Positions 3,687 through 63,502 of a stretch of 64,000 nt of DNA are shown here, piece after piece. The DNA lies in assembly GCA_965215275.1 (NCBI GenBank), contig OZ244044.1, positions 768,001-832,000 on the forward strand, in the 5' to 3' direction. Both the position numbers and the translations under genes were made by a program. Below the pieces are notes generated by a model. It was not told the DNA's origin. It was given only the letters and a program-made list of their open reading frames with translations, and made no database searches. Each line of letters begins with the position of its first letter. Position 1 is the stretch's first letter. This stretch comes from Thermodesulfobacteriota bacterium (GTDB lineage: Bacteria > Desulfobacterota_D > UBA1144 > Nemesobacterales > JAJCZQ01).

Positions 3687-4106
3687 TTAAGCTTCTCTTG
3701 AGGTCATATAGCTGCGAATGGCCTCCCAGTATTTCCACCAATAGGAGTTTTCAGGATGATTTGCCTTTTGCTGCTCCGTCCAGATCATTGCCTGCTCCTT
3801 GTCCTGATAAAGAAGGAACTTCTCTGCCGCGTCCTTTATCTCATCCTGATCTATCTCGATCTTGTTAAGGTCCTCTGATATAGCCGTGCTTATCTCGTCC
3901 AGAGAACGGTGGATCTTATCACACGCCTCCACGATACTTTCCGATTGACCACTGGTATCCTGACCGATAAGGTCCGCGTTGCCTTTGATCAGATCGACAA
4001 AATCAAGCAGGTGATCAGATGATCTTTTTGCTTTTTTAACCTCTTCTATAATTCTTGTATAGTCTTTTGCTGTCGGTGGCATTTTTTCCTCCTTGTTCTT
4101 TATCAA
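3687..4106 (-). CDS. Hypothetical helical protein
   Basis: 139-aa ORF with host-like composition; probable start ATG 4082 after GGAGG. Confidence 0.6.
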   Translation of the reverse strand: MIKNKEEKMPPTAKDYTRIIEEVKKAKRSSDHLLDFVDLIKGNADLIGQDTSGQSESIVEACDKIHRSLDEISTAISEDLNKIEIDQDEIKDAAEKFLLYQDKEQAMIWTEQQKANHPENSYWWKYWEAIRSYMTSREA

Positions 4107-4120
4107 CTACTTTAACTTAA

Positions 4121-4270
4121 GGGACTTATATACTTTAGTACATAAGTACTAAACATACTGTTCTGCAAGCAGAGTCCCTCTTAATTCCCCGTTCTCTTTT
4201 GATAAAACATTTACAGCCTGCATCGGGAACTCAAGTCTGGCTGTCCCACCCGACATAGTGTCTTTTCACT
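4121..4270 (-). ncRNA. Putative TnpB omega/reRNA region (boundaries uncertain)
   Basis: Position overlapping the tnpB 3' end is expected for TnpB guides; potential pairing TCGGG/CCCGA and a perfect hairpin TTTAGTAC-TTAT-GTACTAAA (4133-4152); not checked with a covariance model. Confidence 0.4.
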
Positions 4271-5602
4271 ATTGCAAATGTTTATAGCTGCATTCGTGTC
4301 TGCATGGTCTTTATGACCGCAATACACACACTTAAATACTTCTCCTTTTCTGTTCCTTTTATCTCTGTATCCGCACTCAGAACAGGTCTGTGACGTCCAT
4401 TGAGCCGGGTTCCTGATCAGCTTGCCACCAGTGCTTTTAACCTTGTATTCAAGCTGATTTAATACCTTGCCCAATTGCTGTTCCCGTAAGGACCTGTTTA
4501 ATCCAGATTTCTGCTTTACTTTCTTACCCGGATCTCCCACGGTCCCCTTTGCCGATCTGCTCATATCCCTTAATCTCAGATCTTCTGATATAACAAAATT
4601 ATACGCTCTTGACAGTTCTGTAGTTAACCTGTGTATTTTGTTATGTTCCTTTATTGCTGTTCTTGCTCGTTCCTTCCCAAGCAGTTTTACCTTCTTCTTT
4701 CTCCCGTTGGAACCTTTTTCAGCTCTTGAAACTGCTCTTTGCTTTCTTTTGTCTTTCTTTCTGCTTACTTCAGTTCCCTTGTAAAACGACCCATCTGATA
4801 AAGCAATCCTGTTCCTTACTCCAAGGTCTATTCCTATCGCTCTGTCCAGTCCTCTGTCCTCTCCAGCTATTGTTTCGTAAATAAACTGGATCTCTACTCT
4901 TAAAGCTGTTCTTAATATCCTGATGTATTTTGTTCCTTCCGGTATGCTTCCTCTGAATGAGATCCTGCCTGCTCCCTTTACCGTTAAATATGTCCTTCTC
5001 TCTCCTTTCTTTACATTTCCCCATGTATATGTTTCAAAACTTCTTACCTTCCTGCTGCTGTTCTTATATCTAGGACTGCCTCTCAATCCTTTAAGATGTT
5101 CACTGTATGCCTTATCCACTCTCTTTAACGTCCTTTGCTGTCCCTGAACGCCTGCCTTGCTGAATTCTTTCAATAAAACATCATTCCTTATCTCAGTCAG
5201 TGACTTCGCCTGATCTTCGTAACTTACTGACTTCTTCTTTATCTCCTGTTTTGTTAACTCTCTCCAGTTAACTGGATCTTCGCAAGGTCTTATAGTACTT
5301 ACAAACCTGTTAACTGCTTCATAAACTGTATCCAGATATTTAACTCTGTTCTTCTTGTTGTAAGAAGTACCAAACTCCCATTGTGGGTAGAAATACATCT
5401 GTAATCTTTCTTCTGACAAACCCCACTTCTTCAGCTTCTTGTATTTTTTGTACGCTTCTTTCCTTTCTTCCAGAGCGCTGTTATACAGATAGGTAAGCTG
5501 GTCCAAAGTCCTTTCCAAACCCTTATGAGTTGAAGGGTGATTCAATCCAGCCACTCTGCGTTCCGTCCTCGTCTGCTTAATTATCCTGTTTTCTCTATAC
5601 AT
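4211..5602 (-). CDS. tnpB: RNA-guided endonuclease TnpB (IS200/IS605 OrfB family) with N-terminal insertion
   Basis: RuvC-I GIDLG, RuvC-II SEDL, Zn finger CSECG..CVYCG, RuvC-III HADTNAAINI. Confidence 0.92.
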   Translation of the reverse strand: MYRENRIIKQTRTERRVAGLNHPSTHKGLERTLDQLTYLYNSALEERKEAYKKYKKLKKWGLSEERLQMYFYPQWEFGTSYNKKNRVKYLDTVYEAVNRFVSTIRPCEDPVNWRELTKQEIKKKSVSYEDQAKSLTEIRNDVLLKEFSKAGVQGQQRTLKRVDKAYSEHLKGLRGSPRYKNSSRKVRSFETYTWGNVKKGERRTYLTVKGAGRISFRGSIPEGTKYIRILRTALRVEIQFIYETIAGEDRGLDRAIGIDLGVRNRIALSDGSFYKGTEVSRKKDKRKQRAVSRAEKGSNGRKKKVKLLGKERARTAIKEHNKIHRLTTELSRAYNFVISEDLRLRDMSRSAKGTVGDPGKKVKQKSGLNRSLREQQLGKVLNQLEYKVKSTGGKLIRNPAQWTSQTCSECGYRDKRNRKGEVFKCVYCGHKDHADTNAAINICNSEKTLCRVGQPDLSSRCRL

Positions 5603-5730
5603 TCCTCTGTAATTATACCACGATCACACTTAGCTATTAAGTCCTTTGTTGGGTACTTAAGTATATAAGTCCCCAATTTTTTATTATGTTTATCCAACTC
5701 GTGATTTGTTTAAAGAATAAAGGTTAAGAT

Positions 5731-5868
5731 ATGGGTAGGAAACAAAAGATAATTCCCCCATTAGATGCAACATTTGATGAAGCAATAAAAATAATGTTTG
5801 CTCCCCAAATAGAACTATCTAAAAAATATAGAACTCAAAGAAAATTAAAAGAAAATGAAAAAAGTTAA
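5731..5868 (+). CDS. 45-aa micro-ORF next to element end (MGRKQKIIPPLDATFDEAIKIMFAP...)
   Basis: Manual translation; similar peptides lie next to the other TIR ends in this window. Confidence 0.5.
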   Translation: MGRKQKIIPPLDATFDEAIKIMFAPQIELSKKYRTQRKLKENEKS

Positions 5869-5954
5869 GTAAATCAAAAGATTAAATTATCTTGGGTACT
5901 AAAGTATATAGTCCCCTTTTTTATTAAAGTATATAAGTCCGTCAATTAATGATC

Positions 5955-6749
5955 CTATAAAGGTCTGTAAACGACTATTCCGGGCTTGTCCTTCAGATAA
6001 ACCAGCAGTTCCTCGTCCAGGACCCTTCTGGTATCCTTCCTTGAGGAAGCGTTACGCAGATAAACCTTACCGCCCTTTCTGATCAATATCCCTGTGTGCG
6101 AAACGTCAAGTCCGTCCTCGTCCGAATATATCCCCACGTAATCACCCGTCTTTAACTTATCGGTAACCGATCTGCTCAGCCGGGCAGAAGGGATATATGT
6201 CACTTCCCTTATAAACACCGGTATACCGTTTAAATAATTAGTGCCGTCCTTCTTTGCATTAAGTAACTTGGTCACCGAAACGGCGGACCTGCCTCCAACG
6301 GCCCTGGTCACGTCCCTGATCCTGTCCGCATCAGAACTTGGCCAGTCGGAAAAGAAATGCTTTCTGGCAGCGTATGAGACCCTTCCTCCCTTGTACCTTA
6401 CTCTGATCAGGTTATCTCTGAACTCACCGTAATCAGAAGACAGTCTGAGGGCATCCACGTAGTCAAGATAGGTAAAGCAGTCAAGTCCAGCAAGGTTAAT
6501 GGTCAAGGTCTCTCTGCTCTTATAACTGCCGATCAGCGTCAGAGGCAGATACGGAACACCAATAAAATGACCTGATATGAAGTCGATCTTTTCGCCGCTC
6601 GTCTCGTATTTAAAAGACTGCTTTATCATCTTCGACAGCCTGCTCTCTGTAAATCCTCCAAGATCAACGTACTCGTCTGCGGCGGCGTCACATGAGGCCA
6701 CTTGCAGCAGAAAGGCAAAAAGTATGAGCGACAGCGGGCTACGTTTCAT
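5955..6749 (-). CDS. DUF1460 / NlpC-P60-like N-acetylmuramoyl-L-alanine amidase
   Basis: LDCFTYLDY and GLDVSHTG motifs; signal peptide from ATG 6749 (MKRSPLSLILF). Confidence 0.85.
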   Translation of the reverse strand: MKRSPLSLILFAFLLQVASCDAAADEYVDLGGFTESRLSKMIKQSFKYETSGEKIDFISGHFIGVPYLPLTLIGSYKSRETLTINLAGLDCFTYLDYVDALRLSSDYGEFRDNLIRVRYKGGRVSYAARKHFFSDWPSSDADRIRDVTRAVGGRSAVSVTKLLNAKKDGTNYLNGIPVFIREVTYIPSARLSRSVTDKLKTGDYVGIYSDEDGLDVSHTGILIRKGGKVYLRNASSRKDTRRVLDEELLVYLKDKPGIVVYRPL

Positions 6750-6822
6750 CAAAACTGTAATATAACTGACAGCTTGCGTAATTACTGCCCGTTTTCTCCC
6801 CGGCTGAAAACACCCACCGGCA

Positions 6823-7668
6823 TCAAAACCAGAAATAAAACCCATCGGCAAAGATGAACAGTATGGCACCAAGTGATAAAAAAGGGCCATAAGGAAGTGC
6901 GAACTGAAAATCACCTCTTTTCATCAGTATCACTATGATCCCGACGACCGAACCGATAAGAGAGCTTACAAACAGTGTAAATAACACGCCTTTAACTCCA
7001 AGAAAGGCGCCAAGCATTGCAAGCAGTTTTACGTCACCCATCCCCATACCGTCGGCCTTTCTTATCAGCTTATAGACGATGGCAATAAAAAAGAGCGACC
7101 CTCCACCGATCATAATGCCTAAAAAGGAATTTACCGCCGGGACCTGAACCGCCGAGTAAACAGCCCATGACAGGTCCATATATTCGGTACCAGCGATAAG
7201 TAAGCTCCAGTCGGTTATAAACAGGTTATACAGAAACCCGATCACTATTCCAGGCAGCGTGATCACGTCCGGGATGATCATATACTTCAGGTCCACGAAC
7301 GTTACGGCGATCAGAGAAAAAGCCAGAAGTATATAGACGGCAGTTACCACCGCGACCCCGAACTTATGAAAAATAAGGACGGTAAGCAACGCGGTCAGAA
7401 GTTCCACAACGGGGTACAGAACCGATATACCCGAGCGGCAGTAAGCACACCTTCCCTTTAACAGTACATAGCTGATTACGGGAATATTATGATAGAACAT
7501 CAGATACGAATCACATATTGTGCAGCGCGACCCTGGATAGACGATCGATTCCCCTCTGGGAAATCTGTAAATAAATACGTTTATAAAGCTCCCGAACATC
7601 AGGCCTGTGATGAAAATAAACGTATAAAACACGTACGGGTAGGTCGTTAAAGTATTTATTATATCCAA
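6823..7668 (-). CDS. pilD: Prepilin peptidase (A24 family)
   Basis: GSFINV..YR, CxxC pairs, GMGMGDVKL, PYGPFL. Confidence 0.93.
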   Translation of the reverse strand: MDIINTLTTYPYVFYTFIFITGLMFGSFINVFIYRFPRGESIVYPGSRCTICDSYLMFYHNIPVISYVLLKGRCAYCRSGISVLYPVVELLTALLTVLIFHKFGVAVVTAVYILLAFSLIAVTFVDLKYMIIPDVITLPGIVIGFLYNLFITDWSLLIAGTEYMDLSWAVYSAVQVPAVNSFLGIMIGGGSLFFIAIVYKLIRKADGMGMGDVKLLAMLGAFLGVKGVLFTLFVSSLIGSVVGIIVILMKRGDFQFALPYGPFLSLGAILFIFADGFYFWF

Positions 7669-11939: not shown

Positions 11940-12116
11940 TGTACCACGGCTTAATGGGTTGTTGTTTTAAAATCAGGGAACTATATACTTTATTCACCAG
12001 AAAACGAGTAAGGAGTTAGTACAATAATCAAATTAAATTCAGACATAGAATTAGAAAAAAATAAGGAAACAGACATAAATATTTCCTGTGGAGATACCAA
12101 TACTTTAATTAAGAAA

Positions 12117-12782
12117 GTGCAGGATAATTCCATTGATCTGATCGCTACCGACCCTCCATATCAGATTAATTTTGAAAATAATAACTGGGATAAGAAAGAC
12201 GGACTGAATTGGAACTTTTTAGCAAGTGAGTTCGCAAGGGTTTTAAAACCAAGCGGGAGTTTAATTATTTTTCAAGGATGGTCTCACGTTGCTGATACCA
12301 AGGTTATTCTGGATAAATACTTTACATTAAAAAACTGGATCATCTACGACAGAGTAAAAGGACGAGGTGCCAAGACCAACCTGGTCTCAACACGGGAAGA
12401 TATACTTTGGTATGTAGTGGATGAAGATAATTATACGTTTAACAAGGTCAGTTCCAGCATTAAAAAGAAGACAAAGGGGATGGGATTAAAGAACGGCAAT
12501 GAATTCAGGGCATTATCAAACGTCTGGTCCGACATTCCTCCACTTGTTCCCTGGAGCCAGGAAAGAGTGGATCATCCTACTCAAAAACCGCTGTATTTAA
12601 TGGATAGAATAATCAGAATATATTCAAATGAACATGATACGGTATTAGATCCTTTTTTAGGAAGCGGAACTACATCGGTTGCCTGTAAACTACTGAACAG
12701 AAACTGTATTGGTTTTGAATCAGAAAAAGAATACTTTCAGATAAACAAGGAAAGAATTAGCCATTATGGAAGACTTATTTAG
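12117..12782 (+). CDS. Beta-class DNA methyltransferase
   Basis: TDPPY, HPTQKP, DPFLGSGTT; frame is open upstream to about 12012 (possible non-canonical or mutated start ATA 12024 after AAGGAG). Confidence 0.9.
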   Translation: MQDNSIDLIATDPPYQINFENNNWDKKDGLNWNFLASEFARVLKPSGSLIIFQGWSHVADTKVILDKYFTLKNWIIYDRVKGRGAKTNLVSTREDILWYVVDEDNYTFNKVSSSIKKKTKGMGLKNGNEFRALSNVWSDIPPLVPWSQERVDHPTQKPLYLMDRIIRIYSNEHDTVLDPFLGSGTTSVACKLLNRNCIGFESEKEYFQINKERISHYGRLI

Positions 12783-13344
12783 AGATGGCATACTCAATTT
12801 AAATACTCGCCAGTTTGGAACTGCTGTAGAGCTTATTGTTGTACTGTTAAAACGTTATAGGAAAAGCAATCAGCTTGATTGTGATTTAATTGATCCAGAA
12901 ACCAATAAAAAAATAGAAGTAAAATCTTCAAGAGTTTATAAAAAGCAGTCTTTAAATTTTACTTTGGATAATCTATACGATTTAATTGTTAATAACACAA
13001 ACAGAAATCGTTTGTTAAGGCAGGATCAGGCAACACAAGAAAAGTTTGATTGCAATATACAACAGGTCAAAACAGATCTATTTGATACACTTTATTATTT
13101 ATTATTTTTCTATGATGTTATTGAAGTGTTTAAAATTGAAAATGAAGAAATACAAAAAGATGTGAATTTGAATTATAGTAATAGGCAACATAGAGGAAAC
13201 GAAGGAGAAGGTCAGTTTCACATAACACAAAAAAATTATAAATATCATAGAAATAAATACTTTATTCAGTCAATAACATATGAAGAGATTAAAAAACTAT
13301 TATTAAATAAGGAGTATTTTAATATAAAAAGAAGATCAAAATGA
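12766..13344 (+). CDS. Putative Type II restriction endonuclease (PD-(D/E)XK)
   Basis: Overlaps the MTase gene; CDLID...IEVKSS motif. Confidence 0.65.
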   Translation: MEDLFRDGILNLNTRQFGTAVELIVVLLKRYRKSNQLDCDLIDPETNKKIEVKSSRVYKKQSLNFTLDNLYDLIVNNTNRNRLLRQDQATQEKFDCNIQQVKTDLFDTLYYLLFFYDVIEVFKIENEEIQKDVNLNYSNRQHRGNEGEGQFHITQKNYKYHRNKYFIQSITYEEIKKLLLNKEYFNIKRRSK

Positions 13345-13556
13345 CAGAAAAAGAGAACTTATACAAATATATTTAATCCTCATATAACAGCAATGATGGA
13401 AGAGGTAGCTAAAGCTATATTCAGACCTAATGCTGAATTTAAAGAGAAATCTTTAAGAATGAAAACAAAAAACTAATAAAACTAAATAATAACTTTGGCG
13501 AACAAAGTATTTAGTTCCCAAAAATTATTGTTATTATATTTTCCTTTTTTTCTGAA

Positions 13557-29002: not shown

Positions 29003-29849
29003 GTTTATAACTTCTGTTTGTAATTACCTGATCGCAACCTCACGCCATCAGTTGTAATTTGATAATACCATACTACTGTAAAAAAGAATTTTGGTCTTTT
29101 TAGTTGCTGAGGATATTTGCATCTTTAATGACTCTGATAAGGTAATTGCACTTGGTTTTAACAAACTGTTTATCCTCAATCTTCTCGACATCGAATGCAA
29201 TCTAAACTTACCTATTTTTATAAATAAACCTCTGATCTTTGACTATGAACATCTGAAAGTTATAAGAGCAACATTTACTTTAAAGTGCGGGCAGATGGGT
29301 TATAATACACAACGGATCTAATATATCATGGGATGTATAAAGGATATGAATTATTTCCTTTTATGTCTCGCAGGATATGATAATAAATATAAACTCAAAG
29401 GAATGTGTCCTGTGTTCGGGTTAGATGGTTATACTAATCATAAGAATGATGTTGATTTTATGATCAAAGATTTCAAAGGTATTACAGACGATACTGTTTA
29501 CTAGATCACAGAAGGAATATTTAGTAAAGTATATTTTAGTCCATTCCCAGGAAGAGATATTAACGTTTACATATGTAGTTTTTTAATTATTTCTTGTTTA
29601 CTAAAGTATATCATTCCGAAAAATCCAATAGAGGTTGATCATGCAGAAAAGCACTAACGTGAGAAATGGTAAAGATACCGCGCAGGATTATCATTTTCTT
29701 ATAACTAAAGCGTGGAAAAGAAGTAGAAAAAGAGATGCCAAAAAGTCCCTTGATGAGGGTGTCCTGGAATACAAACAAATGGTAAACGAACCACCTTGTG
29801 AGCGTGATGAGGACCGTGGATGTGTAAATATCAGTGAGCCAACCTGTCA

Positions 29850-30779
29850 ATGAGAATAATACTAACAGGTGGTGCAGGGTTTATAGGGTCCTGGGTTGCA
29901 GACCACTACTTAAAAAACGGCCACGAAGTACTAATCATAGATAACTTGTCCAGTGGCAAGAGAGAGAACGTTCCATCAGGTGCCGAACTTGTTGAAGCGG
30001 ACATCAGGGACGCAGATGCCATGGAGAGGATATTTAAACAGTTCAAGCCGGAAGTTGTCAACCACCACGCCGCACAGACGAACGTCAGGGTATCGGTTGA
30101 CGACCCTCAGTTTGACGCTGCAGTTAATGTGACCGGCACACTTAACGTTCTTGAAAATTCCAGAAAGGCCGGAGTTAAGAAGTTCATCTTTGCTTCAACG
30201 GGCGGAGCGATATACGGGGAGCCGGAGATATTACCCGCAGATGAATCGGTAAAGGAAGAACCCCTGTCTCCTTACGGAGTTTCAAAACTCTGTACCGAAT
30301 CCTACCTTGATTATTATAAGAAAGTACACGGGCTGAGCTATGTAGCACTCAGGTACGCAAACGTTTACGGACAGAGACAGAACCCGCACGGCGGAGCAGG
30401 TATAGTGGCAATTTTCTGTACTAACATGCTCAACGGGACCGACTGTAAGATCTTTGGCAACGGTGAGCAGACAAGGGACTATATACACTGTGAGGACGTA
30501 GCAATGGCAAATACCCTGTGCCTTACGGCACCCGATGGGGTGTATAACATCGGAACGTCAGTTGAAACCTCTATAAATTCAGTGTTTAACGGTCTGAAGG
30601 AGATATCTGGAAGTGATTGCAATGTTCAGTACTTACCGGGGAAACTGGGTGATGTTAAAAGGATCTCACTAAGCAGTTCACTGGCGAACCGGGAATTTCA
30701 ATGGGTGCCTCGTGTAACTTTCCATGAAGGTCTGAAAAAAACATGGGAATGGTTCAGTAAAAACAGCCACTCGGAATAA
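29850..30779 (+). CDS. NAD-dependent epimerase/dehydratase (UDP-glucose 4-epimerase-like)
   Basis: TGGAGFIG, YGVSK, LRYANVYG. Confidence 0.92.
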   Translation: MRIILTGGAGFIGSWVADHYLKNGHEVLIIDNLSSGKRENVPSGAELVEADIRDADAMERIFKQFKPEVVNHHAAQTNVRVSVDDPQFDAAVNVTGTLNVLENSRKAGVKKFIFASTGGAIYGEPEILPADESVKEEPLSPYGVSKLCTESYLDYYKKVHGLSYVALRYANVYGQRQNPHGGAGIVAIFCTNMLNGTDCKIFGNGEQTRDYIHCEDVAMANTLCLTAPDGVYNIGTSVETSINSVFNGLKEISGSDCNVQYLPGKLGDVKRISLSSSLANREFQWVPRVTFHEGLKKTWEWFSKNSHSE

Positions 30780-30845
30780 TACTGTCGTTCTTTGATTGAT
30801 AACTGCTTTATAAATCGTTATCATAGAAGGTCTCGGAGGTAAAAA

Positions 30846-31064
30846 ATGTCCAAGAAGAATGAAAAATTTTATGATGTAAGGGTTTCTGAAAGGTATATAA
30901 AAGAAGGTGTTATAAGTAAAAAACAGTATGAAGATCATATAAAAGGTCTTTCGGACGCTGAAGACAAAAGTGAAGTTCTTGTCATAGAGGAAGGAACGGA
31001 AGAGGAAGGAACGGAAGAGGAAAACGCAGAGGTAGACGAAGATGATGGCAAAGAAACAGAATAA
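30846..31064 (+). CDS. Small acidic hypothetical protein
   Basis: GGAGG RBS; 72 aa with acidic tail. Confidence 0.6.
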   Translation: MSKKNEKFYDVRVSERYIKEGVISKKQYEDHIKGLSDAEDKSEVLVIEEGTEEEGTEEENAEVDEDDGKETE

Positions 31065-31278
31065 CAATTCAAAATGGGAATATAAAGTTGTTACGAGTGA
31101 TTATCTGACAAAAGAAGCTCAAAGCCATGATATTGCAGTTTCACGCGAAGCTTCAACCGCAATAAAGGAAACGGTCAGGGGAAATTTGGAGTCATCCCTG
31201 AGTAATCTGGGAAAGAACGGCTGGGAATTTACAGCCGTTATGGGTGAATTTGTAATATTTAAAAGACCTAAAGACTGA
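31042..31278 (+). CDS. DUF4177-like small protein
   Basis: KWEYKVV...LGKNGWE...FKRP. Confidence 0.65.
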   Translation: MMAKKQNNNSKWEYKVVTSDYLTKEAQSHDIAVSREASTAIKETVRGNLESSLSNLGKNGWEFTAVMGEFVIFKRPKD

Positions 31279-31356
31279 TCTGATAGACACTCTCTGTTTC
31301 TCATATATTGTCTAAAAGGAATTATATACATAAATTGAGGAAGTTATATACGTAAT

Positions 31357-32799: not shown

Positions 32800-33235
32800 G
32801 AATATTGATATTTCTACTTGAATTTATATCCTTGTTTTATAAATAACTACAATACACATACAGTTAAATATTCTCTGATACAGAGGTAATGTGGAATTAA
32901 TTCTTCCACAATCAGACCAAGTTCTTGTTGGATAATGAGAATTAACTAAAACTAACTTACCTCCAGCACTCTCATCCTTGTAAGTAAGTTACTCTTTAAT
33001 CTTTCCCCATTGCTGTTCTTTTATGAATTTAGACAGATGCGTGTGTTTTATCATATTTTGAATCTTGAAACCTTCTAACTTTATATGATTACACTTCTTT
33101 ACGATTTCAGAGTAGTTAATCTGTGTATAGAGTTAGTTTCACAATCAGTAGTTCATTCCCATTATGATAAAACCTTCTTCTTTCTGTCATTACTTCCTTT
33201 CTTAACCCTACTTATTACTCTCTGCCTACTTTTTT
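32800..33235 (-). pseudogene. tnpB remnant, C-terminal part
   Basis: Broken translation RQRVISRVKKGSNDRKKKV..IHRLTT..NMIKHTHLSK..EQQWGK..LTYKDESAGGKLVLVN..SDCG..DINSSRNI parallels the TnpB at 4211-5602. Confidence 0.8.
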
Positions 33236-33279
33236 GGGGATTATATACAAAAATACAAAAGTCACAAAGCCCTAGACAG

Positions 33280-33480
33280 TTAAGCTTTCTTTGTAGGCTT
33301 AAATGGACGCATAAATGTTTCCCTTACTTGCCTCTTTGTCATACCTGACATATTGATTTTAGCTTCTCGCTCTGTCTTGCTAGGCTGATATTTATGTAGG
33401 TCAGTTTGATGGGCTTTGTTTTTGGTATCTTCTACTTTTTTTAGCTCCCTCTTTCTTGAACTTTGCTTTAAACCACTCAT
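33280..33480 (-). CDS. 66-aa micro-ORF adjacent to the TIR
   Basis: YQPSKTERE...MTKRQVRETFMRP; points toward the element end like the other micro-ORFs. Confidence 0.5.
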   Translation of the reverse strand: MSGLKQSSRKRELKKVEDTKNKAHQTDLHKYQPSKTEREAKINMSGMTKRQVRETFMRPFKPTKKA

Positions 33481-33780
33481 AGGCGGTCCTCTGGTTGTTC
33501 TCTTTTGACCCGCGTACCTGCGTCACCAGATATAGTTAGAGGCAGTTCCTGAGCGATGTTATTCGCACCTTGATTACAAGCGCTGCACAAGGTCCGAAGG
33601 TTGTCAACTGAGTCAATATCTCCGTGGTTCCTGTCAACAATATGTGCGACATGTAGCCACGCCGGGCGGGTCCGAGCAACTATCTAAATTACCCGCCGCG
33701 ATGGTGTACATCTTGCAGGTATACCCCGTTTCATTCCAGTACTTGAACCCTAATTTTCTGTCTAACGGAGCGTGAGAATT
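33475..33780 (-). pseudogene. HNH endonuclease remnant
   Basis: Frameshifted GYTCKM...LHVAHIVDRNHG..DNLRTLCSACNQGANN. Confidence 0.65.
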
Positions 33781-33845
33781 AGACCGGAGGCTTTTGCTTA
33801 GGCGTAAGCGTAATTGTATAGTAAACAATCATAGCTGATTTTCTC

Positions 33846-33959
33846 TTAATCCTTCCGCTTCTCATCCAAGGTTCTATAGTCCTGACCATTGGCCTTATGC
33901 GGCTTGCATAACAGGCATCCTGCCCTGCGGTTTTTTGGTCTGCATCGCTTGTGATGCAT
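33846..33959 (-). CDS. 37-aa basic CxxC peptide (MHHKRCRPKNRRAGCLLCKPHKANG...)
   Basis: Manual translation; purine-rich RBS-like GAAGGG upstream; below the ORF-track cutoff. Confidence 0.5.
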   Translation of the reverse strand: MHHKRCRPKNRRAGCLLCKPHKANGQDYRTLDEKRKD

Positions 33960-33979
33960 TTTCTACCCTTCAGCAATAG

Positions 33980-35200
33980 TTATGCTGTTTGTTGCTCTCG
34001 TACCATACCAATAAAGTCATCAACATTCATGAGCCAAGATCGCTGTGTTTCCTGATAGGTTGCATGTAGTTCTTGTGGAAGCACAAGCTGTAATCGGTGC
34101 ACTTTCATCTCTTTTGTCTGGTTTTCACTTATGCTTGGTTCCAGAGTAATCAGATGTTTATCTGGTATTCGGGCCGCTTCAGACAACACCTGCCGCCACC
34201 GATCCTTACAGGTCGATTTTACACCAAGCATGGCCAGCCGAGATGCAGGAAAACTCTTATTATGGTATTCAACTGCACCGGGGAACAGAAAGTCCGGCTT
34301 GGCGTTGTTTTCCGTTACCACTTGCCTGTCAAAATTCAAATCATGTGCTTTGAACAATTCCGCCAAGTGATGTTCAAATGCGTATCCAACACGCGACTTG
34401 CGTCTGTTCTGTACACTCGACGAAAACTTGATAAAACCATCTACATCAGCGCCCTCATCATTCCAGAAGCCGCTTTTCAGGCGGCTAGCCACGATATGCC
34501 GTTCCATACGGCGAAACAGTTTTTCTTCCTGATTCATCCATGCCAGCAAAACCATGTCCGGGTTGCCTTGCGCTTCGACTTCCGGAATGGTCTCACGTGC
34601 AAACGCCGAAAACTCTGCAGTCGTTGGGAACACACCAGAGTAGCACTCCAGCAAAGCATCAAGCTTGTCGCCCTCCGGCTCCTCGATCTCAATTCCCAGT
34701 TCTTCAAGAATAAAACGAGCAGCAAAATCAATTTGCGTGTCGCTCCCTTTCTCATAATCCCTGTACTCAAACTTTAAGTCGAGTTGAATTGGTACACCAA
34801 ACAACCATAACAGCTGATTTTCAACAGTGCTGTTCTGCGGGACCACAATTACCATCATTTCGTTATTGGGTCTTTTGGCCACAATCAGAAGATCGTCTTC
34901 CCCTGCTATTTCCATCACCGGATTGCTGTGGAAATACAAGCGGTGTTCCGAGCGGGTAAGGTGTTTTTCCCTTGCGTCATACCACGTTACAAATGAGTCC
35001 TCTGACAGCCCTTCATTTTCTTCACCAACCCATACAAACCGGGCCGGGCAGTCTGTCAGCCTTTCTTCTCCAAGAAGTTTTTTAAGAGGAATAACACCGT
35101 TAAACTCATGCTGGTTTGATCGACTCGGACTGGCCTCAACAGCTCTAAGCCGTTTGGCGGCAACACCTTCAAAATAATCGGATAGATACCTCTGTTTCAT
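33980..35200 (-). CDS. EcoRII-family type IIE restriction endonuclease
   Basis: N-terminal AKRL..SNQHEFNG effector domain; NRRKSRVG, KPDFLFP, KSTCKDRWRQ. Confidence 0.9.
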   Translation of the reverse strand: MKQRYLSDYFEGVAAKRLRAVEASPSRSNQHEFNGVIPLKKLLGEERLTDCPARFVWVGEENEGLSEDSFVTWYDAREKHLTRSEHRLYFHSNPVMEIAGEDDLLIVAKRPNNEMMVIVVPQNSTVENQLLWLFGVPIQLDLKFEYRDYEKGSDTQIDFAARFILEELGIEIEEPEGDKLDALLECYSGVFPTTAEFSAFARETIPEVEAQGNPDMVLLAWMNQEEKLFRRMERHIVASRLKSGFWNDEGADVDGFIKFSSSVQNRRKSRVGYAFEHHLAELFKAHDLNFDRQVVTENNAKPDFLFPGAVEYHNKSFPASRLAMLGVKSTCKDRWRQVLSEAARIPDKHLITLEPSISENQTKEMKVHRLQLVLPQELHATYQETQRSWLMNVDDFIGMVREQQTA

Positions 35201-35210
35201 CTTCTTGCTA

Positions 35211-36821
35211 TTATCCCATTTCCGTTCCTGTTATATCAACTCTGCCTGCTCCGTTTCTTAACCATGTTGCGATTTCATCTATGACGCAATCAAGAGGCTG
35301 TTTTGTTCGCCCTTTCAAGGCACATTCCCAGACCGTCATTACACGCCAATTGTCGTCTTCAAGCGCAACCAGATTTTCCTGATCTCGCCGCAGCGTTCTC
35401 TCTATCTTGTTATGCCAAAATTCCTTTCTTGTCGATGGCAATTTAAAAAGGTGGCAATTGTGCTTGTGCCAGAAGCACCCGTTCACGAGTACAACAGCCT
35501 TGTATTTTGGGAATACCAAATCAGGTTTGCCCGGCAATTTACTGTTATGAAGAACATACCGAAAGCCTAGGGAATGCAGATGTTTTCGTATTAACAATTC
35601 CGGCTTTGTATCTTTTCCCCGTATGCCAGACATCATCTGGCTTCGTTTTTCCGGGGAAACAACATCATGCATAGCTTGCCTTGCCTGTTCCACAAGAACC
35701 TCCTGATCAAATACAAAGTCCAACTCTTTTTGGCCGTCAACACTCCTCATGGCATCTTGAATATGCGGAAGCATGTATTTAGCAACGGCTTCAACCACTG
35801 GAACCACAACAGCGTTTCCAAACTGCTTGTAAGCTTGTGTATCAAAGACTGGAATTTCAAATTTCGGCTTTCCCGGACCATCAAAACCCATCAGTCTTGC
35901 ACATTCACGCGGTGTCAAACGACGAGGACGTTTTCCACGCTGCTTAATTAGAATCTCCGACCCATCCTTGTAATAACGTGCAGACAGTGTTCTCGCTATA
36001 TCATTTGGCCCGACAAGACCGTAGCCGAAACCGTTACCCTTCGCACGATGCTTTGCAGCATAGTTCTGCAGGTACATCCAGAGTTTGTCTGACAATGTGT
36101 ATTTTGGATTAACCTTGCCTTTGGGAACTTCCGTAAATGGCTCCTCAGCCGGTTCACTGCCATCCTGCTTGTGCAGGATAGAAGACATTGTTGGACCATC
36201 TTCTATAGCGGGCAATTCAAGCTTGCTGAAATCAAACCCTGTATCCTTCCGGAACCCGGCGATAAAGATACGCTCCCGGTTTTGCGGGACAAAGCTTTTC
36301 GCGTTAATCACGCGCCAGTCAATGTTATACCCTAAATCCTGTTCAAGGGTCTTACAAATCACTTTGAACGTATTGCCCTTGTCATGACTAACAAGGTTTT
36401 TCACATTTTCCAGCAGGAATGCTGCCGGACGGTGGTGTGCAATAATCCTGGCAACCTCAAAAAACAGTGTTCCCTGTGCTTCACACATAAACCCGTGGGC
36501 ATGGCCCAATGCGTTCTTCTTGGATACACCAGCAATTGAAAACGGCTGACACGGAAAACCGGCTAGAAGGACATCATGCTCCGGAATCTGCTCTTCCGGG
36601 AACCCGATAATATCTCCTTCGACTTGGTGGTCGCAGTCATAATTCGCCTGATAGGTCTTCCGGCAAGCAATATCCCATTCGCTCGTAAAAATACATTGCC
36701 CGCCAATGTTATCGAACCCCACGCGCAGGCCTCCAATCCCTGCGAAGAGATCAATATATCGGAACATAGATTCTCCCTCTGGCTTTTTCGACCCATTAGT
36801 GATCTGAGCCAAAGTATCCAT
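35211..36821 (-). CDS. Dcm-like C5 methyltransferase fused in frame to Vsr very-short-patch repair endonuclease
   Basis: [33 protein letters not shown], then with no stop [25 protein letters not shown]...GCFWHKH...VWEC (Vsr from 35672); the track ORF start 36935 lies outside the TIR. Confidence 0.9.
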
Positions 36822-36893
36822 TATTGTGGCTAAATGGTATTGCTTCGGGCGGATAATGTCAAGTGAATTTGTGACTTTATGTATATAATTTCC

Positions 36894-59630: not shown

Positions 59631-60119
59631 ACGAAATTGCCATCTGCTCAATTGCCGAGTTTCACAAAAAACTGCAAAAACATAAGAAATTTGACAAAAT
59701 GCTAATGTCTTGCCCTTTCAGGATCCATTTTAGAAAAATTAGCAATTTCTTCTAATGTTTCTTTAGGTCTATAGTAAAACCATCTCTTGCAGTATTAATT
59801 ACTGAAGTTTTAATATAAATATAGGGAACTATATGCTTTGTTCACCAAAGTTATTATTTAGTTTTTTTCTCAAGGATTTCTCCTCGCTTTTTAACAGATT
59901 CAGCATTAGGTATGAATATAGCTTTAGCTACCTAATTTATCGTTGATAGTATATTAGAAATAAATCTATATTGTATAAGTTATCTTTTTTTCCTGTCATT
60001 TTATGTACAGATTGCTGATTTTTTCTTTATGTATAGCTAATTTGGGAATTGTATAACCACCATGTTCAACGCGTTAGCAAAAAATCTCATTTAAATTCCC
60101 CTTTTTCCTTGAGCAAAGT

Positions 60120-60578
60120 TCATAACTCTAAAAATTTCCACTCATCCGTACGCTTATAACTTAAATCTATATCTAATTGATTTGCTGCCCAATTATTAAG
60201 TTTGTTTATAAGATCTGGGTTATAAACAAATTCCTTATGGACTCCTAATTCCTTAAATATTACCTTCGTAATTCGTTCACGCGCCCTTGCACCGTTAAAA
60301 ACCACTCCGTTGCATTTAAATGCTCGACCAGTATAGTTCCTGTAATCCAGTATTTTTCTAAGTTTCCTATAATTCATTTCTTTGTATCCAACAAATTTGC
60401 CAATTCCAAATTGAGAGGTGTCAGTGTCATAAACCCAATTATGTTTTCCTGATTTAAAGTAATTACTTTTCATATATCCCCTAAATTCTAAATTATCTTC
60501 TGCCTCTTCATTTAATGTTACAATATTATCCTTAATATCCTGTATTGTTGACACAAAATATAAATCGGGCTTTTGCAT
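60120..60578 (-). CDS. Hypothetical protein
   Basis: 152 aa with AAGGAG RBS; passenger of the IS1595 element. Confidence 0.6.
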   Translation of the reverse strand: MQKPDLYFVSTIQDIKDNIVTLNEEAEDNLEFRGYMKSNYFKSGKHNWVYDTDTSQFGIGKFVGYKEMNYRKLRKILDYRNYTGRAFKCNGVVFNGARARERITKVIFKELGVHKEFVYNPDLINKLNNWAANQLDIDLSYKRTDEWKFLEL

Positions 60579-60748
60579 GTTGTATACTCCTTTACTATTG
60601 AATTTTTTTGTTTTTTACTTTTATAGGTTTGTTGATAAAAATAATTCGGGTTTTGCCCATGTTTATCCTTCGTCGGTTATTGTAACATAAGAAAATTAAA
60701 ATAACTATTCTTGACTTAAGTTAGAATAAAGAGTAGTATTCTATAACG

Positions 60749-62216
60749 ATGCAAGGTTCTATCCCCCCCCCCCCCAGAAAATCGCACACTTTATGCAGAC
60801 GATTGTCTGAATGTCCTGAACGATACGTCAAAATTTCCTGATGAGTGTATAGATTTAATCTATTTAGACCCACCATTTAATTCAAACCAAACTTACAACT
60901 TGCCTTTTAAGAGGAAACTAAAGGAGGTTAAACCAGTTGAAGTATTTAAAGATACTTGGACTTGGGGACAAGAAGAAGATGAGATGTTAGAAGGTTTTAA
61001 AAGCAGTAGTAATCCGAATGTAAAAAAGTTGGCGGATTTGGTCTTTCTTGCTCGGTCAATAAACGATGAAAGAACTAAAACAAGAAGTGCAGCTGCTTAT
61101 TTGTGTAACATGGCTATCAGACTTCTATCAATGAAACGAGTATTAAAAAATACGGGAAGTATTTATCTCCATTGTGACCCTACTATGAGCCATTATTTGA
61201 AATTGTCGTTGGATTTGATATTTGGTAGAAAAAATTTTAGAGATGAGATTGCATGGCATTATCCAAGTATGAGCAAGAGATTGTCTGGCTTTCCTAAAAA
61301 ACATGACACAATATTCCGATACACAATGAGTGATAATTATATTTTTAATTATAAAAATATCTTAATACCTTATGCAAAAAGTACAGTAAATAGATCAAAA
61401 TACGGAGGTGCAGGTTTTAAAAGAAAAGAAGGATATTCTAACTATCTTGTGAGAGAAGGTAAAATACCCGATTCAGTATGGAACATTCCACATATTAAAA
61501 GTAAAAATGAACACTTAGGCTACCCTACACAAAAGCCTCTGAAACTACTTGAACGAATAATCAAGGCAAGTAGTAATGAAGGTGATTTAGTTCTTGATCC
61601 TTTTTGTGGATGTGGAACTGCTGTTCATGCTGCAGAAGATCAAAAGAGAAACTGGATAGGGATAGATATATCAAAGTTCTCTACTGGACTTATAAGTGAG
61701 CGTATCTGTAACAATTTTCCTAAATTGCAGAGTAGTGATATAAGAATTTTTAATGTTCCTGACAATTTACAGAGTGCCAGAAACTTAGCAAAACAAGACC
61801 CGTTTGAGTTCGAGAAATGGGTATGTGGGGAGATCGGTGCTCATGGCATGTTCCGTGAACCAGGAAGGAAAGGATCAGACGGTGGGGTTGACGGCATTAT
61901 TGACTTTGGATTGTTTAAGGGGCTTAATAAACTTAGTAAAGGTTATGCTATCGTTCAAGTTAAAGGTGGAAAAGTAACTCCAGATTCAGTTAGAGCATTA
62001 TATCAGACTGTAAAATTTTTTGGTGCAACAGCAGGGGTTTTTGTTTGTTTTAATGAATATATGAACACAGTTGAAAACAACAGAAACAAAGATACTTACA
62101 ACGACCTGACAGGAATATACCCCTTAATTCAAGGATTCAGTGTAGAAGACTTGCTTGCAAAGAAAAAACCTAATCTACCACCACTTGTGATTAGAGAAAA
62201 CGCATTGTTTACTTGA
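60749..62216 (+). CDS. Beta-class DNA MTase fused to an Mrr-like endonuclease domain; out of frame at a C13 tract
   Basis: In-frame upstream extension ENRTLYADDCL..DLIYLDPPFNS contains the catalytic DPPF; YPTQKP, DPFCGCGT; C-terminal DGGVDG..VQVKGG; ATG 60749 is out of frame across C13 (60763-60775). Confidence 0.85.
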
Positions 62217-62222
62217 TAGAGT

Positions 62223-62540
62223 TTACTGTACTAATTCCTTATATGTAATCCTCTTCCCATCTAACCCGTTAACTACATTCTCAATTTGGTTTATTATCGG
62301 TAATGGTCTGCTGTCGTGCCTTCCAACATGCTCATCAACATAGCGTTGCAGGTGCTTTTTGCTCATATAGTGGTATGTTCCAATATATCCTCTTTTTAAC
62401 ATAGACCAAAAACTTTCTATCTCGTTGGCATGAACTTGACCTTTAATGTACTCACCTACTCAATGATTTACAGATTCATGCCTATATAACTTCTTATTCA
62501 ACCCAATATATCCTAAATTCTAATCCGTATAAATTGTGTC
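62223..62540 (-). pseudogene. IS1595-family (ISXO2-like) transposase, C-terminal remnant
   Basis: IYTD*...HESVNH*VGEYIKGQVHANEIESFWSMLKRGYIGTYHYMSKKHLQRYVDE...GKRITYKEL; two in-frame stops. Confidence 0.9.
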
Positions 62541-62578
62541 AAGCAATCTTTATAAGTCTCTGAATTTTTTTGAAGTGT

Positions 62579-62956
62579 CTATTCTCCTTCATTATCTTCC
62601 TCTTCTTCCTCCTCATTTTCACCATTCTCTTCCTCTTCTTCTCCAAACAACTCGTCGACTTTGCATTTGGCTTTGCCTTTCACTTCGTCAGTTATACATT
62701 CAACAACTGTTTTGACAGCTAAACCTAAAACCACAAGATCATCTGATAAACCAACAATTGGTATAACATCTGGAACGACATCTACGGGAGAAATGAAGTA
62801 ACCAAGTGCACCAATTATGATAGTTTTTGCCCAACGTGGTGTTACATTGGTCATGGCAGTTTTTGCTTCAGGAGACTGAAGTGCGTAATAAAGTTGAAGA
62901 GCCAATTCTACACACTTTCTTACAATCTTGATTGCGCCTTTTTTTAGCTTACTCAA
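62579..62956 (-). CDS. YkvA / DUF1232 family membrane protein
   Basis: ALGYFISPVDVVPDVIPIVGLSDD. Confidence 0.85.
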   Translation of the reverse strand: MSKLKKGAIKIVRKCVELALQLYYALQSPEAKTAMTNVTPRWAKTIIIGALGYFISPVDVVPDVIPIVGLSDDLVVLGLAVKTVVECITDEVKGKAKCKVDELFGEEEEENGENEEEEEEDNEGE

Positions 62957-63169
62957 AAACCTTTTTCGGAGTTATTTTCATCGGTCATAATTATTCTCCA
63001 TTGTGTAAAATATGGAAAATAATATACTTTGAGCAATCAAGAAAAGCCAACAGAGACTTTATCTCTGTATACCCAGCTACCTTGTGTATTCTACTCTTAA
63101 AACTGTATTTCCTTTTCCGCCAGCTTGTCTGGGTTGGATAACAATATTAATATCTTGTCGGTTTCTTGA

Positions 63170-63502
63170 TTAGTTATATTCATTCAATAAATCTTTTAAA
63201 ATTGGATAATCAATTTCCTCTCTGGCATGACCATCACAAGAAGTATTATAGATGTGTTTAAGGTATTTTAAGCACTGGAATTTTTCCATAGATAGTATGT
63301 AAACTAACAAGATAGATTTTTTATTATACCATCTGTCTAAAATATAATACTGCCAAACACAACTTATATTATATAGAAAATGGTTTATGAAAAACCAAGT
63401 TTTGGGCAACATTGTATATAATCCGCAAATCAAAATTTTGATGCCTTGGCCGGCTACTTCCACACCCACTTCAACAGAAAAGGAAATAGATAACAACAAC
63501 AA
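63170..63502 (-). CDS. Hypothetical protein; possibly the frameshifted continuation of the J-domain gene
   Basis: Overlaps the J-domain ORF end by 32 bp in another frame. Confidence 0.3.

Follow-up and report, generated by a model that had tools for sequence, protein, structure and literature searches.

The stretch of DNA under study (64,000 nucleotides, the window in what follows) holds a mobile unit without a transposase gene, composed of tnpB and a predicted ωRNA scaffold between terminal inverted repeats of the IS1595 type, which, in the reading that we consider fairly probable, would be moved in trans and retained through the cutting of element-free sites by TnpB. In general terms, the unit appears to work like an IS605-type TnpB element in IS1595 packaging and, judged by its sequence, it is to be placed outside IS200/IS605, IS607 and autonomous IS1595.

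The gene itself (4211-5602, minus strand) encodes a protein of 463 aa with the RuvC residues D259, E340 and D435, a C4 finger and a 68-aa insertion in the REC region, the latter belonging to the focal lineage and modelled with a pLDDT below 50. The protein reaches 163.5 bits on NF040570 (cut-off 100) in a profile search, which confirms the original prediction of an intact TnpB with RuvC D/E/D and a zinc finger; the IS200- and IS607-specific TnpB models are not passed, NF038281 and NF038280 remaining far under their cut-offs, and the best structural matches of the predicted model are TnpB proteins (8h1j at E 5.5e-16). All 125 aligned repeat-bound TnpB proteins retain the D/E/D triad and the four cysteines, dN/dS among the four copies of the focal lineage lies between 0.22 and 0.41, and frameshifts are present in some tnpB copies; from these data the nuclease looks intact, conserved and alive. 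An extended -10 promoter for tnpB and the ωRNA is predicted at 5612..5640 (minus strand; 10/12 consensus positions, with TG before the -10 hexamer), which is a consensus match only, six such matches having been found against 4.0 by chance, and a terminator search of the focal unit returned none.

The mobile unit extends from 4121 to 5673 (1,553 bp). Its limits are set by three further genomic copies, which align over exactly these 1,553 bp (95-96% identity to the focal copy in DNA and 93-95% in protein), and by contigs of other runs, which leave the window sequence at 5673 and at 4119-4121 into different flanks, so that the extent of 4121-5941 given by the original prediction had to be shortened. 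The 5' (left) terminal inverted repeat, of 24 bp and IS1595 type, occupies 5650..5673 (minus strand), where the other copies and the contigs end, and is identical in 21/24 positions to the 3' (right) repeat at 4121..4144 (plus strand), whose body forms the 3' arm of the last predicted scaffold stem. The 5' repeat lies just 47 bp from the start codon, and the 3' repeat 66 bp from the stop codon, which leaves little room for nested IS605 ends; the IS605 or IS607 ends inside the repeats that would have told against the recruitment were not encountered; from the stop of tnpB to the element tip there are 90 bp.

Beyond the left repeat, the locus is a mosaic. The end motif occurs at 4121 (plus strand) and at 5673, 5916 and 5941 (minus strand), among six matches in the window where 0.06 would be expected in the motif scan, in agreement with the three stacked inverted ends that had been described; nevertheless, the outer two proved to be remnants of two other elements. 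The segment 5731..5916 (minus strand), outside the TnpB unit, is the remnant end of a different IS1595-type element (92% to genome positions 889026-889218) and also matches, more weakly, the 3' ends of IS1595 elements, while 5917..5941 (minus strand), equally outside, is the tip of an older ωRNA-bearing end, as seen in runs X8 and X10, where the 5941 tip runs on into ωRNA-like sequence, as it likewise does at four other genome sites. A single element spanning 4121-5941 was considered, with flanks matching at 6/8 and ends at 20/24, but was rejected, because the copies stop at 5673 and X8/X10 place the 5941 tip elsewhere. The host genes at both sides are an AmiA-like gene (PF07313) upstream, at 5955..6914 (minus strand), and downstream a gene at 3687..4082 (minus strand; start codon probably at 4082) whose orthologue directly follows the AmiA-like gene in the relatives G001 and G002. 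The empty-site comparison that had been proposed was informative: in both relatives the two genes lie about 50-60 bp apart, and in X8/X10 the left flank carries on beyond 4120 with the element absent. Taken together, the locus can be described as an intergenic hotspot with one intact TnpB unit and two remnants.

Comparable material is scattered around it. Orphan ωRNA-like ends with a variant tip, and lacking an adjoining intact tnpB, lie at genome positions 292708, 376692, 522451 and 890742, and may be decayed elements or stand-alone guide RNAs. In the window, further end-like sites bound other cassettes (11976-13519, 29618-31339, 33236-36893 and 59824-63426), a broken tnpB fragment is found at about 32905-33233, and the IS1595 transposase remnant noticed earlier near another cassette end is real (62325-62537, with a weak degenerate end at 62560).

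If the unit encodes no transposase, which enzyme moves it? There is no transposase gene between its repeats and no DDE transposase within 1 kb of tnpB at the focal locus. The absence of a Y1 or serine transposase from the unit was correctly predicted: the sole Y1 match of the genome, G000 (one contig of 1.99 Mb, 99.87% complete), is weak (26 bits) and lies at 1883440, about 1.1 Mb away, and this 99.87% complete genome has no PF00239 (serine recombinase/resolvase) match. It does have 28 IS1595 transposase matches. Two tested IS1595 ORFs pass NF033547 and their element ends match the focal repeats in up to 21/24 and 20/24 positions; an autonomous IS1595 at 675417-678070, whose ORF passes NF033547, has an end with 21/24 matches to the focal left repeat, and the GG start of the focal repeats is common to the autonomous IS1595 of the same genome. 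Of 21 tnpB loci detected by tblastn two are fragments, and all 19 near-complete ones are flanked by inverted repeats (about 24 bp, 15-24 of 24 matching), which supports the earlier proposal that TnpB has been recruited by a DDE/TIR family. The 8-bp target duplications are perfect in nine of these 19 loci, 7/8 in three, 6/8 in two and at most 4/8 in five (including the focal one), so that the anticipated combination of the same ends with 8-bp duplications holds for the genome at large (at least 7/8 at 12/19 loci) but fails for the focal copy, whose 4/8 match amounts to none. In the four copies of the focal lineage the match is 6, 4, 1 and 1 of 8, none of them perfect, and a search for flank swapping among the four found no reciprocal cross-match. 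The duplications were likely lost by adjacent deletion or recombination, both known causes of absent duplications (PMC11708052).

Based on the ends and the duplications, the unit is likely moved in trans by the IS1595 transposases of the genome. An autonomous element carrying both IS1595 transposase and tnpB was looked for among the collected loci (L001-L233) and the scan elements described below (flanks up to 2.5 kb) and was not found: in the former, the only co-occurrence of both genes is one contig-end fragment, and in the latter no IS1595 transposase lies inside any element delimited, among the matches listed and with flanks limited to 2.5 kb. A predicted complex of TnpB with the IS1595 transposase scored 0.00 and is not counted as evidence. 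In an alternative reading, a small IS1595 derivative would have received an IS605/IS1341-type element that has kept its own ends and depends on a Y1 or serine transposase. Such a reading could appeal to the usual company of TnpB, to the nested ends of this hotspot and to the one weak Y1 match; however, the breakpoints of the copies coincide with the repeats and their 8-bp duplications, the predicted scaffold has the repeat itself as a pairing partner, resolvase matches are absent and NF038281 and NF038280 stay far below cut-off, by which this alternative is largely refuted already and, in our judgement, extremely improbable.

Variation within the IS1595 side was also observed. Repeat-body variants (those of L217, L218, L215 and L227 versus those of L014, L017, L105 and L130) have their counterparts in different autonomous IS1595 elements, which suggests that the transposase partner has been switched repeatedly. 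Two autonomous IS1595 of this genome (L018, L019) have cargo, among it an ORF in which methyltransferase-like motifs and, at the C-terminus, an HNH-like stretch were recognised by inspection, and at 1616480-1619604 two TnpB elements stand head to head, 16 bp apart.

The arrangement is widespread. In a genus of the same order, tnpB matches are found in 30/36 genomes. From 148 distinct loci (most of the listed full-length ones), 132 belong to three repeat-bound clades, and the 3' repeat was found at 125 of these 132, so that close homologues do carry the repeats; the other 16/148 are mostly unrelated TnpBs. A DNA-pattern scan gave at least 125 genome matches (45 of those listed having short flanks), 72 metagenome matches and one viral match, under record titles that include Rhodothermales, Caldilineaceae, Paracoccaceae, Arenicellales, Poribacteria, Dehalococcoidia and others. 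A TnpB ORF is present in 173 of the 183 distinct scan matches listed and, among those listed with enough sequence, the 5' repeat in 85/112 and a 7/8 or 8/8 duplication in 50; since the scan selected on the 3' repeat, it speaks of spread and not of frequency. From these records, the same transposase-free tnpB design is present in several phyla. The focal protein had 0/4 matches in the same-family relatives of G000 (two of them fragmented, 80-83% complete), and the TnpBs found on plasmids are 29-36% identical, among the 10 matches listed. In a FastTree tree, two repeat-bound clades have supports of 1.00 and 0.86-0.96 and the deep nodes are weak, for which reason two independent captures of TnpB are proposed tentatively.

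Two loci deserve separate mention. One (L304), a repeat-bound TnpB element of 2,521 bp, has a perfect duplication and contains some 1 kb of additional sequence, which does not encode an IS1595 transposase. In the other (L027, G019:C4, minus strand 387-1753), a 401-aa TnpB is directly followed by a mini CRISPR-like array with two full repeats of about 39 nt and one partial, separated by 27-nt spacers, the repeat end resembling the element tip; this TnpB is nested in the repeat-bound clade B/C with weak local support, and the locus may represent a transition from repeat-bound to CRISPR-guided TnpB.

The 3' repeat seems to have a second role. A scaffold core of the ωRNA is predicted at 4121..4253 (minus strand), overlapping the last tnpB codons and the 3' repeat in full; the fold of the region 4113-4330 is better than those of its shuffles (z -2.89), and Rfam gave no meaningful match for it. 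The perfect 8-bp hairpin that had been noticed some 60 bp past the stop is real, one base off the 4133-4152 first given (4134-4153, 58 bp from the tnpB stop). In clade A, a conserved scaffold motif is followed by bases that can pair with the 3' repeat body, and in 52 distinct clade A cores 229/260 cells of this predicted stem are paired (shuffle mean 184, maximum 203), one position showing A-T, G-C and C-G pair types. Two named four-helix structures have 97% and 96% of their cells paired, with 28 and 47 double changes, against 27-55% in slid controls, values to be read knowing that the helices were drawn from the same alignments on which they were counted and that kin are not independent. A pseudoknot loop is predicted at 4243..4247 (minus strand), pairing with the element tip (4121-4125) through four invariant pairs and a fifth that changes from A-U to C-G in the focal lineage; in a first set of 16 rows this fifth pair is A-U in 12, C-G in three and unpaired in one, and in a second set it is unpaired in 17/55 rows, which makes the pseudoknot plausible, not proven. 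The right repeat is thus predicted to double as the 3' stem and pseudoknot of the ωRNA, its body being the stem arm and its tip the pseudoknot partner, which lends support to the earlier idea of a guide defined by or abutting the repeat. Since the scaffold would end at the element tip, the guide would start in the right-hand duplication (at the first or second base past the tip, as predicted) and continue into the flank; the segment proposed from the scaffold end, 4101..4120 (minus strand), whose first 8 nt would be the target duplication, occurs only once in the genome when compared at 16 nt, one mismatch being allowed.

The insertion sites display a one-sided signature. It was counted in elements with a 7/8 or 8/8 duplication only, after removal of repeated sites (those from related genomes being not fully independent), with 29 transposase-bearing IS1595 elements as controls, or 28 once start-codon sites are removed. 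The base directly 5' of the left duplication (-1) is G in 33/35 clade A elements of genus g10, the mirror C occurring in 9/35, and in 6/6 of the 407-aa group of this genome, as opposed to 5/29 in the IS1595 controls (mirror 6/29). Among the scan matches listed, new taxa show G at -1 in 39/46 versus 16/46 for the mirror; in Rhodothermales, each of the 11 copies whose duplication reaches 7/8 or 8/8 has G there. Other branches have A: 3/3 in clade C and 3/3 in the 484-aa sisters of the focal copy; for two A-type groups the count of A at -1 is 6/6 versus 9/29 in the controls, with TA in 3/3 of clade C and 2/3 of the 484-aa group with duplication, most other lineages being G-type. A-type branches occur in both clades and the switch from G to A tracks the TnpB branches of the tree. 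A bias by lineage is also seen at the first duplicated base (A in 24/24 of clade B; T in 13/14 of one clade A sub-lineage). In the focal lineage (463 aa), A is read at -1 from the junctions and from the X8/X10 site, in DNA that is AT-rich; as this lineage has no perfect duplication, its motif is drawn from three sister elements and unduplicated AT-rich junctions. This one- to two-base signature beside the relatives is probably the recognition motif of the nuclease.

Could the signature have another origin? Host-fitness filtering or end asymmetry might generate it, TnpB being a passenger or using another motif, and some insertions fit such a filter. In one sub-lineage, 7/16 sites lie just after a host ATG, and an ATG within the element end shares its frame with the downstream ORF in 9/9 cases (10/15 in clade B; 2/6 in controls), and start-codon insertions at loci of genus g10 (e.g., L025, L039, L130, L043 and L127) have a right end that supplies an in-frame ATG. 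The new ATG from the element end would keep the interrupted host gene translatable, and insertion just after host starts together with this supplied ATG explains the ATG-like motif of two lineages. Insertions at gene starts might then be tolerated via read-through and the supplied start codon, with which the common frame in clade B (10/15), its purine-rich upstream bases, which further confound the signature there with ribosome-binding sites, and the lack of a terminator in the unit are consistent. Nevertheless, with start-codon sites removed, G at -1 persists in 69/79 elements versus 4/28 IS1595 controls (a pool of the clade A G-type groups and the scan set, the latter from the matches listed, with clade B, at 9/16, kept out), and group by group in 13/14, 9/9, 6/6 and 38/46 versus 4/28, in contexts that include CG, AG and GG. 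Start codons are rejected as the full cause of the G signature and accepted as a partial one; added to the catalytic residues intact in 125/125 proteins, this makes the host-filtering explanation rather unlikely.

In the mechanism that we favour, of trans mobilisation followed by retention, an IS1595 transposase would move the tnpB unit at AT-rich sites without motif preference, and TnpB would take its guide from the right flank and cleave alleles that lack the element and bear a short motif, after which recombination would restore or spread the element (cut-and-copy). The motif would be very short and lie just 5' of the duplication (mostly G; A or TA in some lineages, including the focal one), the first duplicated base perhaps forming part of it. 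The filled site would escape cutting, because its left junction matches only 8 guide bases and its right junction has no motif. Only insertions landing beside a motif would gain retention and spread, producing the one-sided signature, and, because the controls have no motif, its match to the insertion sites would come from selection among insertions, not from a shared specificity. Empty IS1595 alleles could come from sister chromosomes after insertion, from precise excision or from incoming DNA. Retention by TnpB cut-and-copy has been shown for IS200/IS605 (10.1101/2023.03.14.532601). Against the mechanism, a 2026 review argues that cut-and-paste elements should gain little from it (PMC13565253).

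A variant keeps the same element and trans mobilisation and lets the TnpB/RNA complex bias integration itself, so that insertions would be born beside the motif. Nearly identical copies within one genome show the bias almost without exception (the 11 Rhodothermales copies, among the matches listed); it is absent from IS1595 controls with similar ends and tracks TnpB phylogeny, all of which would fit. However, the transposase is shared and supplied in trans, and assemblies show insertions that have already spread, for which selection predicts the same picture, so that sequence cannot separate the two. To our knowledge, no active TnpB has been seen to steer a DDE transposase, and we regard this variant as distinctly unlikely. 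Its boldest form belongs to a broader proposal to which we would give little credence: a widespread family whose active TnpB, recognising a motif of one to two bases, would determine the final location of the products of a borrowed DDE transposase, even by biasing integration, the end being rebuilt into guide RNA and re-tuned at each switch of IS1595 partner.

Under the retention mechanism, an open question becomes testable: of what use is TnpB to a transposon without scarless excision, whose transposase is blind to the motif of the nuclease? The insertion sites directly predict lineage-specific motifs, mostly one G alone; for a compact nuclease of 400 aa this would be a remarkably loose requirement, and a useful one if confirmed. 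The repeat, which must serve both the transposase and the RNA fold, offers a natural case of dual constraint. The surprise is limited by the fact that the general arrangement is already in print.

Indeed, six DDE-associated TnpB branches with inverted repeats (DDE-1 to DDE-6) were described by Altae-Tran et al. in 2023, together with solo TnpBs that have the same DDE-type ends and were proposed to be moved in trans (PMC10691335). The present system resembles them in its inverted ends, in the distance of the tnpB 3' end from the element end (up to 250 bp there, 90 bp here) and in the solo trans copies (PMC10691335). DDE-5, with a TA motif 8 bp upstream of the end according to the supplement, is matched by the A/TA lineages, which likewise have TA and, compared by description, may be the same branch (PMC10691335). 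The covariation between scaffold and repeat, the signature tested against controls and the start-codon donation seem to go beyond that paper; IS1595 has no occurrence in its main text and appears in its supplement only in a profile list (PMC10691335), and the DDE partners of TnpB named in the 2026 review are ISL2, IS630 and IS1031 (PMC13565253). TnpB with DDE-type ends is already published, and a literature search found no publication that names IS1595 as the partner.

Solo tnpB elements of IS200/IS605 (IS1341-type) share with the focal unit an overlapping ωRNA that ends at the right end, a guide from the flank, a motif at the left end and mobilisation in trans (10.1101/2023.03.14.532601). In IS200/IS605, one motif of 4-5 nt is recognised by both the Y1 TnpA and TnpB, the element has asymmetric ends and no duplication is made (10.1101/2023.03.14.532601), whereas here the ends are symmetric, the duplication has 8 bp and the transposase-bearing controls have no motif. 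With the IS1595 family the unit shares GG-starting inverted repeats of about 24 bp and 8-bp duplications (PMC8101967), and it differs in lacking a transposase gene, in having tnpB as cargo and in the predicted incorporation of one repeat into a functional RNA. Finally, Fanzor in eukaryotic DDE transposons also has a guide RNA that overlaps a terminal repeat, its motif can agree with the insertion site, and bases of the duplication can join the motif or the scaffold (PMC10530073, PMC13565253). Unlike Fanzor, the protein described here is a prokaryotic TnpB with a canonical D/E/D and a pseudoknot predicted to be retained, Fanzor1 being without one (PMC13565253).
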